In this document: positions 42,678 to 47,386 of the stretch, one piece after another
How the letters are laid out: every line of letters starts with the position of its first letter
How positions within the stretch are numbered: the stretch's first letter is position 1
DNA from: an uncultured Chloroflexia bacterium
GTDB taxonomy: Bacteria; Chloroflexota; Limnocylindria; Limnocylindrales; CSP1-4
Direction: 5' to 3'
Assembly (NCBI GenBank): GCA_963774695.1
Contig: CAVZFY010000021.1
Location: 148,786 to 212,785, forward strand
Length of the DNA: 64,000 nucleotides
The notes under the pieces: generated by a model
The model's database searches: none
Told to the model about the DNA's origin: nothing
What the model saw: the letters and a program-made list of their open reading frames with translations, nothing else
Made by a program: the position numbers and the translations under genes

Positions 42678-45367
42678 TCAATGGTCGTGCGCGTGGCCCG
42701 TCGAGGCGGTCGCGGGCAGGGCCGCGGGCCCATGGCCGTTCCCGTTCGCGTGGCCGTGGCCATTGCCGTTGCCGTGCCCGTTCCCGCCGCCCGCGATCGA
42801 GGCCGGCAGCACCGGCAGCAGGCGCGCCGGGTCGAGGAACCGGCCCTCCGCGCGCGCCCGGTCGGCCCAGTCGCGCTCCTTGCGGATGTAGCTCATCTCC
42901 GTCTCGCGCTCGACCGCCGCCAGCGCGAGGAGGTCGATCATCGGCTCCTCGCGGGACGTGTGGCTGAGCTCGAACTGGTCGCTGTCGCGCACGGCGTCGT
43001 ACGGGCACGCGTCGACGCAGATGCCGCACAGGATGCAGCGGCTCTCGTCGACCTCGTACTTCTCGAGCACGCGCGGCTTGGGCATCAGCGCGCCGGTCGG
43101 GCACGTCTCGGCGCACCGGCCGCAGGACACGCACGGCGTGTCGTTGAGGCTCATGTCGAGCGGCGTCGTGACCAGGGTGTCGAACCCGATCCGCATGAAG
43201 TCGTAGCAGGCGGCGCCCACGACCTCGGCGCACACGTTGGCGCAGCGGCCGCAGTCGATGCAGCGCGACGGCTCGCGGAGGATGAACGCGTGGCTGTCGT
43301 CGCGGACGTAGTCGTGGTTGATGCCGGTGAACCGGTTCTCGGTCACGCTGCGGTAGCCGGCGCCCTGGTGGAACGCGGGCTCGAGCGTCTTGAGCGTCGT
43401 CCCGTACTCGATGCCGAGGCGGCGCAGGTCGCAGAACCCGATCGCCTCGCACGTGCACTGGAGGCAGCGCGTCGACTCGGCCATCGCGTCGGCCGGCGTG
43501 TACGGGATCTCGTACTCGATGTAGTTGCTGTTGCGGGCCTCGGCCTCGAGCGCCGTCATGCGGTAGCGCGGCTCCTTGATCTCGCCGGTGAACGGCACGA
43601 TCGAGAGGAACTCGGGCTGCGGCTCGGCGAGCGTCTGGCGGGCGCGGATCGTCGACGAGGTCGTTGCCCTTGAGGTAGGCGTCGACCGCGTAGGCGGCGC
43701 GCCGGCCCTCGGCGATCGCCTGGACCACGGTCGCCGCGCCGATCCGCACGTCGCCGGTGCCGAACACGCCGGGCCGCGCGGTCTCGAAGGTCACGGCGTC
43801 CGCGCCGAGGCGGCGCTGCTTGGTGGCGACCGGGCCCTCGGAGCCGGGCCGGATCCAGTCGAGCTCCGGGCCCTGGCCGATGGCCAGCAGCACGCGGTCG
43901 CACGGGATCGTGAACTCGGTGCCCGGCGCGGGCTCGGGGCGGCGGCGGCCGGAGGCGTCGGGCGCGCCCGGCTGCATCCGGATGAACTCGATGCCGGTGA
44001 GCTTGCCGGTCTTCTCGTCGGTGATGACGCGCGTCGGGCCCGCCTGGAAGATGGCGGTGACGCCCTCCTCGATGGCCTCGTGGACCTCGTTGCTCGCCGG
44101 CATGTCCTTCATGTCGCGGCGGTAGACGAGCGTGACCTCGCTGGCGCCCTGGCGGATCGACGTCCGCGAGCAGTCCATCGAGGTGAACCCGCCGCCGACG
44201 ACGACGACCCGGGAGCCCTCGTGGCCCGGGTACGGCAGGCCGAGCGTCGCGGTCCGCAGGTACTCGAGGCCGTCGATGACCCCGTCGGCGTCCTCGCCCG
44301 GGATCCCCAGCTTGTTGGTGTCGTAGCAGCCGATGGCGACGACGACGGCGTCGAAGCCCTGGTTCTGCAGGTCGTCGAGCGTGAAGTCGCGCCCGAGGCC
44401 CATGTTGCAGCGCATCTTGCCGCCGAGCCGGATCACCGACTCGTACTCGGCCTCGAGGACCTCGACCTTCGGCAGGCGGTACTGCGGGATGCCGTAGCGG
44501 AGCATGCCGCCGGGCGACGGGTCGCGCTCGAACACCGTCACGTCGTGGCCGGACAGCAGCAGGTAGTAGGCGGCGGCCATGCCGGCGGGCCCGGAGCCGA
44601 TGACCGCGGCGCGACGCCCGGACGCGGCCTGCTGCTCGAACGGCAGCGGCGGGTCGACGTCCTCGTCGAGCATCGCGCGGATGACCTGGTCGCCGGCGTA
44701 GCGGTGGCTGTCGCGGATCGCGATCGCCTCGTCCACCTCGTCGCGGCGGCAGTGCTCCTCGCACGGCGCCGGGCACACGCGGCCGAGCACGCTGGGGAAC
44801 GGGATCGTGCGCTTGAAGATCCGGGTGCGACTCGCGCCAGTTGGCCTCGGCGTTGGCCTTGAGGAAGCCCGGGATGTCGATGTGGCTCGGGCACTTGTTC
44901 TGGCACGGCGGCAGGCAGTACGCGTTGTGGTCCGAGAAGATCAGCTCGAGGTTCGTGCGGCGCAGGCGGCGGACCTCCTCGGTCTGCGTCTGGACCTTCA
45001 TCCCGTCCTCGCACGTCCGCGAGCACGAGATCGGCGGCGTGTCCTCGCCCTCGACCTCGACCACGCACATGCGGCAGGCGCCGAAGCCCGGCAGCTTGGG
45101 CTCGTAGCACAGGGTCGGGATCTCGATGCCGTTGTCGCGGCAGACCTCGAGGATCGTCTGGCCCTCGAGGCCCTCGACCACGCGCCCGTCGACCTCGATC
45201 CGGATCGCCGGCGTGCTCTGCGGCCGCTGCGGCGACTGGGTCGTGATCAGCCGCTCGGCGAGGCCGTCGTTCTGGGGCGTGACGGTGTCGAGGACCGCGG
45301 GGTTGTCGGGGCGCGACTGGACACGGCGCTCGGGCGGGCGTTCGGGGCGGATGATCAGGTCGGCCAT
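42678..45367 (-). CDS. NuoG-position fusion protein: 2Fe-2S, GltD-type FAD/NAD(P)H oxidoreductase, 4Fe-4S, 2x4Fe-4S, and the C-terminal half of NuoI; 2 frameshifts (~44810, ~43650)
   Basis: CYEPKL..FGACRMCVVEVEG..ISC; HNAYCLPPCQNKCP; GRVCPAPCEEHCRR; VIGSGPAG; GGMLRYGIP; VVGGGFTSMD..VYRR; GTGDV; RCLQCTCEAIGFC; CIDCGRCANVC; CVSCGRCAETCP; then KYEVDESRCILCGICVDACPYDAV..SDQFELS..REE. Confidence 0.9.
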
Positions 45368-45375
45368 GTCGCGTC

Positions 45376-46704
45376 CTAGCTCGCCGCGCCCGCCGCCACC
45401 GCGATCGGCTGACAGACGCCGGCGGGGCACGAGCTGCGCAGGATGTGGTCGTCGATCTCGGAGCGGAAGTATCGCATCCCGCTGGTGAACGCCAGGGTCG
45501 CCAGGCGCTCGTGGTCGCACAGGCCGCTGGCGGCGATGTCGTGCGCGAGGTCGCCCAGGAGGTCGGCGTCGGTGGGCTTCGGACGGCCGGTCGAGATCCG
45601 GTCGCCGATCTCGTACAGCCGCCGCAGCCCGATCCGGCAGGGGATCGTCTTGCCGCAGGCCTCGTCGGCGGAGAACTTGGTCAGCAGCCGGGCGAGGTCC
45701 ACGACGCACGCGCGGTCGTCGGCGAACACGACGGAGCCGGAGCCGATGTGGGCGCCGGCTTCGCGGAGCGGCCCGTAGGCGTACGGCATGTCGATCGCGT
45801 CGGCCGGCAGCAGCCCGCCGGTCGGCCCGCCGATCAGGATCGCCTTGAGCGCGCGGTCGCCGCGCCCGCCCGCGAGGTTGACCAGGGTCCGCAGCGGCGT
45901 CCCGAACGGCACCTCGGCGATGCCGCCGCCCGCGGGGCCGCGGAGCTGGACGAGCACCGTGCCCGGGCTGTCCTCGACGCCGGTCGCCGCGAACGCCGCG
46001 CCGCCCTGGCGGACGATCCACGGGACGGTGGCCAGCGTCTGGACGTTGTTGACGACGGTGGGCTTGCCGAACAGGCCCGTCTCGGTCGGATAGGGCGGCT
46101 TCTGCTCGGGCTGCCCGCGCTTGCCCTCGAGCGCCTTGAGCAGGACGGTCTCCTCGCCCAGCATGAACGCGCCCTGGACCGGCCGGATCGTGACCGTCAC
46201 CCGCTGGCCGCTGTTGAGCACGTTGTCCCCGAGGAAGCCGGCCTCCTCGGCGGCGAGCGCGGCGCCCTCGAGCTTCGTCACGAGCGCGGGGTCATCCGCC
46301 CGGACCGCGAGGATCGCCTCCGTGGCGCCGACGGCGAACGCGGCGATCGCGAGGCCCTCGAGCACGAGGTAGGGGTCCGCGGCGAGCAGCGCGGCGTCGG
46401 TGTGCGAGCCCGGGTCCGCGCCGTAGCCGTTGGCGACGACGTAGCGCTGGGTGGCCGACTGGGACGCGGCCGCGCGCCACTTCTCGCCGGTCGGGTAGCC
46501 CGCGCCGCCCCGGCCGCGCAGCCCGGAGGCGGCGATCGTGGCGATCGTCCCCGTCGCGCCGAGGTCGCGGACCGCGATCCGCAGCCCGTCGAAGGCGCCG
46601 GCCTTCACGGCGGCGTCGAGGTCGCCGGGATCCTTCTCGAGCGCGGCGACGCGTCCGGTGAGGATCGACGGGAAGTCCCGCTGGGTCGAGATGAACGCGC
46701 TCAT
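45376..46704 (-). CDS. nuoF: NuoF/HydB-like flavoprotein with divergent NADH/FMN and N3 motifs
   Basis: Intact 442 aa ORF: SGLRGRGGAGYPTGEKW; NGYGADPG; GEETVL; PPYP; NNVQT; GGPTGG; EACGKTIPCRIG; GLCD; HI..SSCPAGVC. Confidence 0.9.
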   Translation of the reverse strand: MSAFISTQRDFPSILTGRVAALEKDPGDLDAAVKAGAFDGLRIAVRDLGATGTIATIAASGLRGRGGAGYPTGEKWRAAASQSATQRYVVANGYGADPGSHTDAALLAADPYLVLEGLAIAAFAVGATEAILAVRADDPALVTKLEGAALAAEEAGFLGDNVLNSGQRVTVTIRPVQGAFMLGEETVLLKALEGKRGQPEQKPPYPTETGLFGKPTVVNNVQTLATVPWIVRQGGAAFAATGVEDSPGTVLVQLRGPAGGGIAEVPFGTPLRTLVNLAGGRGDRALKAILIGGPTGGLLPADAIDMPYAYGPLREAGAHIGSGSVVFADDRACVVDLARLLTKFSADEACGKTIPCRIGLRRLYEIGDRISTGRPKPTDADLLGDLAHDIAASGLCDHERLATLAFTSGMRYFRSEIDDHILRSSCPAGVCQPIAVAAGAAS

Positions 46705-47386
46705 GCGCCGCCCGCCGCGCCGGCGCCCCGGTCGCGCCGCCGAAGCCGAGCGACGCCTCCAGCGCCGACCGGTAGTCCGACTCGATCGCCCGGTGCGCCT
46801 CGCCCGCGGGCGCCCCGGCGTCGATCGTCGGTGGCTCGAAGCGCAGGTGGCGGTAGTAGGTCGCGGTCCCGTAGATCATCGCGTACCAGGTGCCGGTGAT
46901 CCGCGAGATGTGCTTGAGCGCGCCGACCGGCAGGTAGCCGTACTCGGCCTGCGTCTCCTCGAGGATGGCCAGCAGGTCCTTGGGGTCGTAGTCGTGGCGC
47001 TCGAGGATCTCGTCGAGGGCGGCCGTGTCGACGGGGTCGAACCGCGCGTAGGCCGCGTCCGGCACGGTCCGGCCGGACCGGCGCAGCGCCGACTCCTCGC
47101 GCCGCTCGCCGAAGGTCTCGGCGGGGCCCCAGTGGACGTGGAAGCGGCCCTTGGTGTCCATGCCGCCCATGTCGATGCACTCGATCGGGCAGGCCTGCGC
47201 GCACTGGAAGCACGTCTCGCACTTGAGCGTGCCCCACTCGTCGTACAGCAGCTGGAGCCGGCCGCGGAACTTGGGCGGGACGTCGGCCGGCTGCTCGGGC
47301 CAGTGGACGGTCGCCTTGGGGGCGAAGAACCGGCGCAGGGTGAACCCCATGCCCCGGACCATGCCCATGCCCGGCACGGTGCTCAC
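46701..47386 (-). CDS. Fusion of the N-terminal half of NuoI (one CxxCxxCxxxCP) and the N-terminal helical domain of NuoE (no 2Fe-2S domain)
   Basis: GMGFTLRRFF..KATVHWPEQ...KFRGRLQL.YDE.G.LKCETCFQCAQACPIECI, then LDEILERH...LLAILEETQAEYGYLP...IYGTATYY, all in one frame. GTGA overlap with nuoH and ATGA overlap with nuoF (stop reached via a late frameshift). Confidence 0.88.

Follow-up and report, generated by a model that had tools for sequence, protein, structure and literature searches.

The stretch analysed here (the window) comprises 64,000 nucleotides of an uncultured Chloroflexia bacterium of the Limnocylindria (contig CAVZFY010000021.1, positions 148,786 to 212,785) and carries a complex I (nuo) operon in which the place of nuoF is taken by a gene for a 442-residue protein, here called F'. 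The operon reads nuoA-B-C-D-H, a fusion of the N-terminal half of NuoI with a NuoE-type N-terminal domain, F', a fusion of a [2Fe-2S] domain, a GltD domain and a NuoG/NuoI C-terminal part, and then nuoJ-K-L-M-N. A sequence-only reading of the window had described F' as a NuoF with a degenerate site for nicotinamide adenine dinucleotide (NADH) and flavin mononucleotide (FMN) and with a cysteine missing from cluster N3. By its sequence and its surroundings, F' appears rather to be the B subunit of an NfnABC/StnABC-like module that has been built into the complex I operon of Limnocylindria-type Chloroflexota, and that has been altered at both its flavin pocket and its N3 (B1) cluster site. The gene and the motifs on which this account rests are as follows.

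46704..45376, minus strand: open reading frame (ORF) of F', 442 residues, NfnB/BfuB-type with a NuoF fold
46498..46515, minus strand: glycine-rich loop G64-R-G-G-A-G69, followed by Tyr70 and Lys75-Trp76; retained nucleotide-binding loop 1
46408..46431, minus strand: N92-G-Y-G-A-D-P-G99 (canonical N-A-D-E-G/S-D/E-P-G), with Asp94 replaced by Tyr and Glu95 by Gly
46393..46407, minus strand: S100-H-T-D-A104 (canonical A-F-M-D-R), without the Bfu AFM signature or Arg104
46147..46179, minus strand: V176-Q-G-A-F-M-L-G-E-E-T186 (canonical G-A-G-A-F/Y-V/I-C-G-E-E-T)
46036..46050, minus strand: N219-N-V-Q-T223 (canonical NNVET)
45706..45708, minus strand: Cys333, putative first ligand of the B2 zinc, aligned with Cys437 of Thermococcus sibiricus (Tsi) NfnB
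45637..45657, minus strand: C350-G-K-T353-I-P-C356, the N3/B1 loop, middle Cys replaced by Thr
45505..45519, minus strand: C396-D-H-E-R400, the helix (fourth) Cys of N3/B1 followed by a clade-specific D-H-E-R in place of G-L-G-Q
45412..45447, minus strand: H420-x5-C426-P-A-G-V-C431, putative other three zinc ligands

F' aligns from residue 1 to 442, without a gap, with the 442-residue homologue of a related locus (L004; 89% identity), which bears out the indel-free frame reported earlier. It contains the Pfam domains PF01512 (Complex1_51K, 125.5 bits against a gathering cut-off of 31.2) and PF10589 (NADH_4Fe-4S, 65.8 bits against 23.5), and it scores under the cut-off of both the NuoF equivalog TIGR01959 (329.8 bits against 558.65) and NF010120 (249.6 against 389). 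Its best sequence match in the PDB is the NfnB of Caldicellulosiruptor saccharolyticus (Csac; 9bov_B) at 363 bits and about 41% identity, followed by StnB of Sporomusa ovata (8oh5_B, 342 bits) and Tsi NfnB (330 bits). HydB of T. kivui, A. woodii and T. maritima gives 318-332 bits, FdsB about 250-266 and complex I NuoF about 200-245. Structural comparison also puts 9bov_B first: the AlphaFold (AF2) model of F' (pLDDT 93.7, pTM 0.92) superimposes in Foldseek on 9bov_B over 430 columns (TMq 0.93, root-mean-square deviation 1.4 Å), with FdsB and NuoF ranking lower. The core consists of a Rossmann-like FMN domain, a ubiquitin-like domain and a four-helix bundle. Since the alignment covers only residues 114-526 of the 584-residue NfnB, F' lacks both the N-terminal thioredoxin-like domain and the C-terminal ferredoxin domain with its two [4Fe-4S] clusters. 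The absence of the latter, which had been noted from the sequence together with the retained Bfu-type H...CPAGVC, is confirmed by a stop 11 residues past Cys431. By these scores and by its model, F' is best described as an NfnB/BfuB-type subunit and not a true NuoF. The earlier assignment thus does not hold: 9bov_B scores 363 bits where complex I NuoF reaches about 240, the equivalog score is 330 against 559, and F' departs from NuoF in each feature tested, namely equivalog score, motifs and a four-Cys N3 site. Judged in the same way, F' shares ancestry, fold and zinc-site ligands with BfuB and NfnB, yet lacks what marks a bifurcating B subunit: the flavobicluster residues, the ferredoxin domain and C1 in its partner.

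The departures from the canonical pocket were placed by comparison with three sets of homologues: 108 superfamily representatives from a scan of 1.84 billion proteins (the canonical set), 76 species-level homologues with 63-90% identity to F' that were fetched with their loci (the clade), and five more distant short relatives. The NuoF motifs sought were N-A-D-E-x-E/D-P-G-x-F/Y-K/M-D-R, G-A-G-A-Y/F-I/V-C-G-E-E and N-N-V-E-T; F' reads NGYGADPGSHTDA, VQGAFMLGEE and NNVQT in their places. The motifs given in the sequence-only reading (NGYGADPG at residues 92-99, GSHTDA at 99-104, FMLGEE at 180-185, NNVQT at 219-223 and CGKTIPC at 350-356) are all found in the translation, and the substituted residues do map to flavin, nicotinamide and N3/B1 in solved NuoF and NfnB structures, as it had claimed (PMC9299107, PMC12018979, PMC11829005). 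Position 94 is Asp in 98 and Glu in 10 members of the canonical set, which was selected for Asp or Glu there. The other positions concerned are also strongly conserved in that set: Glu95 (107/108), Gly96 (94/108), Gly99 (105/108), Phe/Tyr101 (102/108), Arg104 (99/108), Cys182 (88/108) and Glu222 (94/108). The residue of Tsi NfnB that corresponds to Tyr94 is Asp195, which adjoins the FMN, and the Bfu signature A201-F202-M203 has S100-H101-T102 as its counterpart in F' (PMC12018979). In Aquifex NuoEF, Glu95 and Asp103 lie at the nicotinamide site, and the ADP part is contacted by Phe71, Tyr205, Lys76, Lys202 and Glu185 (PMC9299107). Of 70 positions at which the canonical set hardly varies, F' deviates at 10, and nine of these lie either in or beside the flavin/NADH loops (70, 94, 95, 96, 104 and 108) or at N3 (349, 353 and 399), so that the changes are concentrated at the pocket and the cluster site.

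These changes are common property of the clade. The earlier proposal to align homologues bore fruit here: the variant residues are fixed across the 76 relatives and depart from the 108 canonical sequences. Asn92, Tyr94, Asp97, Pro98, Cys350, Cys356, Cys396, His398, His420, Cys426 and Cys431 are invariant in all 76, and the best 120 database clusters, from independent assemblies, have the same variant pattern. Within residues 176-186, Gly183, Glu184 and Glu185 are retained and Val176, Gln177 and Leu182 are fixed in place of Gly, Ala and Cys; Phe180, the Bfu Phe281 signature, is retained in F' and is Tyr in most of the clade. In the glycine-rich loop Gly64, Arg65, Gly67, Gly69, Lys75 and Trp76 are invariant and Gly66 is present in 75/76. 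Gln222 is found in 71/76. The six closest sequences, compared in pairs by the Nei-Gojobori method, give dN/dS values of 0.12-0.26, and the gene is therefore under purifying selection. Other positions have become freer. Overall mean entropy is 0.78 in the clade and 1.86 in the canonical set, yet 23 positions vary more among the 63-90% identical clade members than among the canonical sequences, which are only 35-45% identical. They include 70, 99, 101, 104, 108, 219, 348 and 353; the adenine-stacking Phe at 70 is now Phe in 55, Tyr in 16, Met in three and Ile in two, and Asn219 has relaxed to Asn in 38, Gln in 30 and His in five. The side chains that contact adenine, flavin and nicotinamide are thus relaxed, with the backbone loops retained. 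F' is also one of the fastest-evolving subunits of its operon: between two loci (L013 and L083) identity is 53% for F', against 74% for the NuoG-GltD fusion (G-GltD), 69% for NuoD and 70% for NuoC. In canonical complex I NuoF is among the best-conserved subunits, the reverse of what is seen for F'.

At the N3/B1 site the ligand set reads Cys350, Thr353, Cys356 and Cys396, in place of four Cys. The Thr353 codon ACG (45648-45646) differs from TGC at all three bases, as had been pointed out, and likewise from TGT. Cys353 is present in 108/108 canonical sequences and in none of the 76 homologues, of which 55 have Thr and 21 Ser. Following the invariant Cys396, His398, Glu399 and Arg400 are also present in 76/76, with Gly399 in 106/108 of the canonical set. 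A C-x2-X-x2-C loop with an additional Cys is a [3Fe-4S] geometry, as in E. coli FrdB (C204/C210/C158; PMC1459171), and the F' pattern of loop plus helix Cys matches it; the N3 site, however, is not a ferredoxin fold. Because position 353 alternates strictly between Thr and Ser, and because of the clade-specific D-H-E-R after Cys396, a [4Fe-4S] cluster with an oxygen or nitrogen ligand is also possible, and the fourth ligand could come from Thr/Ser353, Asp397, His398 or Glu399. Two candidates for a replacement cysteine were set aside. Cys345 is present in just 42/76 clade members and is Ser in F', and in the alignment the cysteines of CPAGVC fall, along with Cys333 and His420, on the four residues that bind zinc in Tsi NfnB. 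In that protein the B2 zinc is held by Cys437, His524, Cys529 and Cys534 (PMC12018979). Cys333, His420, Cys426 and Cys431 are each present in 76/76, and together they appear to be the Bfu B2 zinc site and not a spare ligand for N3.

More distant relatives display the same losses in steps. All short F' proteins group in a single clade of the maximum-likelihood tree (SH-aLRT 92), and Asp94 is present in none of them; this clade lies among longer homologues outside complex I, and the deep nodes are poorly supported. One sister (P0123, 53% identity) has Ile94 and retains Glu95, F-x-D-R, NNVET and all four Cys; another (P0128) has Met94, with Cys353 replaced by Ala; three (P0129, P0130 and P0180) combine Tyr94 with four Cys. 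In eight streamlined genomes (L102, L104-L110; G013-G020), which belong to the same order and measure 1.0-1.4 Mb, the sole PF01512 gene encodes an F' with about 50% identity, which reads NGYESDP or NAYESDP, LQGSSMIGEET, NNVAT and CGKTIPC and has lost all four zinc ligands. In one of these (L110), QLHCHRDGGASVASSW replaces the glycine-rich loop and Lys75, Asn92 is His and Glu185 is Ser; its ORF is uninterrupted, and the loop is not recovered in any other frame. Loss is thus graded across the sister lineages, of Asp94 in all, of the Cys and the zinc site in some and of the glycine-rich loop in one, and the three-Cys set 350/356/396 is the sole redox feature common to all F' lineages compared. 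Of five short F' genes whose gene context was compared, four lie in the full operon type, and the module of the fifth (L088) adjoins nuoB alone; there the NuoI/E, F' and G::GltD genes (L088:6746-11774) have no membrane-arm genes nearby. At another locus (L086:12073-12822) a gene for a HAD-family hydrolase stands between G::GltD and nuoJ. The NuoI-N/NuoE partner of P0123 (L083:7156-8001) is 281 residues long and contains a partial thioredoxin-like domain (CRCPAC ... DCHG); such a fusion may represent a stage on the way to losing the N1a/C1 cluster.

The genes that flank F' in the window are these.

46701..47368, minus strand: upstream gene, N-terminal half of NuoI fused to a NuoE/NfnC N-terminal domain
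42678..45367, minus strand: downstream gene, NfnA-like fusion of an N-terminal [2Fe-2S] domain, a GltD/NfnL-type flavin adenine dinucleotide (FAD) domain, a NuoG-like Fe-S part and the C-terminal half of NuoI

The upstream NuoI/E protein is without the thioredoxin-like [2Fe-2S] (N1a/C1) domain, and its intact 220-residue homologue at L013 has no Cys past the NuoI motif. Its frame in the window stops short of the ATGA overlap with F', probably through an indel error between 46829 and 46704. Frameshifts are also found in nuoA (about 51390), nuoD (about 49150) and nuoG-gltD (about 44827 and 43650), with conserved sequence resuming in another frame each time; the short-read relative L013 has single intact ORFs at all of these genes, and the F' ORF itself is clean in the window. 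The source assembly has 29 contigs and an estimated completeness of 72%, and many of its relatives are long-read metagenome-assembled genomes. The frameshifts in neighbouring genes are most likely long-read indel errors and not decay, and such errors would most likely also account for so low a completeness in so few contigs.

Elsewhere in the genome, only one NuoD locus was found, that of the F' operon. A second, canonical complex I was considered and rejected, given this single locus and a second PF01512 gene that adjoins an FdhA-like gene, with the proviso that in an assembly rated 72% complete absence is unproven. The second PF01512 gene (G000:C29:25975-26490, within L001:700-3516) has fully canonical motifs, CNADESEPGTFKDR, GAGAYIAGEET and NNVET, and the odd motifs are therefore specific to F' and no genome-wide habit. 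A NuoE-like gene lies before this gene and an FdhA/NuoG-like gene (ICPYCGVGCT) after it; the gene is also frameshifted, and its setting suggests a NAD-linked formate dehydrogenase or similar enzyme. The proton-translocating transhydrogenase subunit PntB (G000:C1:18762-20147) was found in 21/21 genomes searched (the present one and 20 relatives, those of 1 Mb included) and in 4/14 control genomes, which fits a complex I fed by NADPH in cells that move electrons from NADH to NADPH.

On balance, and with restrained confidence, we favour the view that F' is a flavin-less, non-catalytic scaffold whose three-Cys cluster, probably [3Fe-4S], forms the dead end of a side branch, and that electrons enter through the FAD of the GltD domain. 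In the soluble NfnABC enzymes the mid-potential path runs FAD-A7-A6-A3-A2-A1-B1-FMN, the flavobicluster B1-FMN-C1 bifurcates, and B3/B4 pass electrons to ferredoxin (PMC12018979, PMC11829005). The N-terminal domain of NfnC is wedged between NfnA's Fdh-like domain and the Rossmann fold of NfnB, and together with the NfnB core it forms a 'stable platform' (PMC11829005). The bifurcation site is dismantled jointly in F' and in its NuoE-like partner. Because C1, B3, B4 and B5 are gone, B1 has three Cys and the flavin-side acids are replaced, with the stable-platform part remaining, F' would be mainly a scaffold. It would no longer oxidise NADH or bifurcate; with the NuoE-type N-terminal domain it would form a rigid base by which the NfnA-like subunit is kept on the complex. 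Its cluster, [3Fe-4S] or a [4Fe-4S] with a Thr/Ser oxygen or a His/Asp ligand, would terminate what was once the input branch, N3-N1b-N4, as a dead end, and electrons would pass from the GltD-type FAD to the NuoI/NuoB clusters, bypassing F'. The absence of FMN, the type of cluster and the off-pathway role are what we infer from these sequences. Of the three outcomes offered by the sequence-only reading, namely a subunit that is vestigial, one that is structural or one with an altered cluster, all with electron entry via GltD, the last two and the GltD entry agree with this view. A vestigial, decaying subunit does not, considering the low dN/dS, the variants invariant in 76 species and a pocket that is more conserved than the rest of the protein.

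Several observations weigh against the scaffold reading, and loss of FMN is not provable from sequence. The 56 pocket positions have a mean entropy of 0.40 in the clade, against 0.84 for the other 348, and none of 5,000 random sets was as low. The new residues Tyr94, Gly95, Ala96, Gln177 and Leu182 are essentially fixed, so a ligand could still be bound. The elements on the ADP side (glycine-rich loop, Lys75, Glu184/Glu185 and Arg/Lys202) are retained, as are GGP(S/T)GG and the 318-323 loop. The wire to F' also persists: each of the four Cys of the adjoining [2Fe-2S] cluster (N1b/A1) is present in 82-85 of 85 loci, and with the three invariant B1 Cys this is unexpected for a pure dead end. Finally, in the PF01512 protein RsxC of E. 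coli position 94 is Ala and position 222 is Gly (NAAECEP, QNVGT). Subunits of the RnfC/RsxC type bind FMN. Asp94 and Glu222 are thus not universal in the superfamily, and only the replacement of Glu95 by Gly sets F' apart from both the canonical set and RsxC. Nor is variation at Asp94 unique to F', because longer NuoF-family lineages outside this operon type, reading N-x-H-E or N-A-A/S-E (P0227, P0244, P0260; P0186, P0194, P0242, P0247), also lack it. It is because the pocket is remodelled and not abandoned, the ADP elements and the wire are kept, and RsxC does without Asp94 and Glu222 that we hold our confidence in a scaffold only a little above an even footing.

Most of these points also speak for an F' whose remodelled pocket still accommodates FMN and NAD(H), Tyr94 standing in for the flavin-tuning Asp, a possibility that we take seriously while doubting it. 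The complex would then have two inputs, NADH at F' and NADPH at GltD, or act as a membrane-coupled transhydrogenase, with the modified N3 wiring F' to N1b. The sister P0123, with its Glu95, F-x-D-R, NNVET and four Cys, adds to the case. Set against it are the loss of Glu95, which all but one of the canonical sequences and RsxC retain; the relaxation of the AFM motif, Arg104, Glu108, Asn219 and both adenine-stacking aromatics; the absence of the partner's [2Fe-2S] and of one N3 Cys; a rate of evolution above that of G-GltD and NuoD; and the lineage from which the glycine-rich loop has vanished altogether. An F' that is not inert in another way seems unlikely to us: the invariant Tyr94, near the cluster site, and a three-Cys cluster of higher potential might constitute a new redox or sensing site, such as a flavin-free NAD(H) regulator that gates an NADPH-fed complex I by the NADH/NAD+ ratio, or a Tyr/[3Fe-4S] buffer against over-reduction. 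More unlikely still is a flavin-free pocket in which bound NAD(P)H, NAD+ or ADP-ribose plays a structural or regulatory part, in the manner of the non-catalytic NADPH in the 39-kDa subunit of mitochondrial complex I. The contrast between conserved ADP-binding elements (among them Glu185 and Arg/Lys202) and changed flavin- and nicotinamide-side residues is what such a pocket would be expected to display; however, positions 70 and 205, which stack on adenine, are relaxed, one lineage has lost the loop, and in canonical enzymes the pyrophosphate of NADH hydrogen-bonds FMN, so that binding without FMN would be weak (PMC9299107, PMC11829005). As for sequencing artefacts or a decaying pseudogene, the frameshifts in neighbouring genes and the low completeness of the assembly could raise the suspicion. 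The comparative data refute it, and we give it next to no weight: the ORF is full length and gap-free against its relatives, the same residues recur in the 76 species-level genomes and in the 120 clusters, the ACG codon differs from TGC at three bases, dN/dS is low, and the neighbouring genes are intact in L013.

No description of the F' subunit was found in the literature on Limnocylindria complex I or on GltD and NuoF in Chloroflexi complex I; the nearest case found is the replacement of NuoI by a GltD-type flavoprotein in mbx-like operons (PMC4758237). Complex I normally has NuoF as its invariant entry gate, and in these abundant soil and freshwater bacteria this subunit appears to have been replaced by a stripped-down transhydrogenase subunit, which in some members with 1-Mb genomes is the only protein of the NuoF family. 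If F' does lack flavin, a bifurcating Bfu core would here have been turned into a scaffold by nature, and electron entry into complex I would be pinned on the GltD FAD, probably fed by NADPH, which would alter how respiration and NAD(P)H balance are modelled. The series of sister lineages, from four Cys with NNVET through three Cys to loss of the zinc site and of the glycine-rich loop, also amounts to a natural mutagenesis set that could separate the parts of the NuoF fold needed for catalysis from those needed for assembly.

Among known systems, the closest is the NfnB of NfnABC/StnABC (C. saccharolyticus 9BOV/9BP5, T. sibiricus 9N5U/9N5V, S. ovata 8OH5). It has the same Rossmann, ubiquitin-like and four-helix core as F', shares by alignment the 3Cys-1His zinc ligands, and its partners are also the same: a NuoE-type N-terminal domain and an A subunit with a [2Fe-2S], a GltD/NfnL FAD and a NuoG-like Fe-S part. 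F' differs in lacking the thioredoxin-like domain (B5) and the 2x[4Fe-4S] domain (B3/B4), in a partner without the C1 [2Fe-2S], in the replacement of the FMN-side Asp by Tyr and of Glu95 by Gly, in the loss of AFM (SHT in F') and in a B1 site of three Cys plus Thr/Ser; and NfnB is encoded in a soluble three-gene operon, F' inside a nuo operon. With the 51-kDa subunit of complex I (NuoF/Nqo1/NDUFV1) F' has in common the Pfam domains, the fold, the place between NuoE-like and NuoG-like genes of a nuo operon and a homologous N3 adjoining N1b, yet identity is only about 33-36%, NADE has become NGYG, NNVET has become NNVQT and CxxCxxC has become CxxTxxC, and the Bfu-specific His/Cys zinc motif, absent from complex I NuoF, is present in F'. 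Subunits of the HydB/HoxF/FdsB type, which include the genome's own copy, probably linked to formate dehydrogenase, on contig C29 (L001), belong to the same superfamily; they keep all flavin, NADH and four-Cys motifs and lie beside a catalytic molybdenum or hydrogenase subunit, not in a nuo operon.

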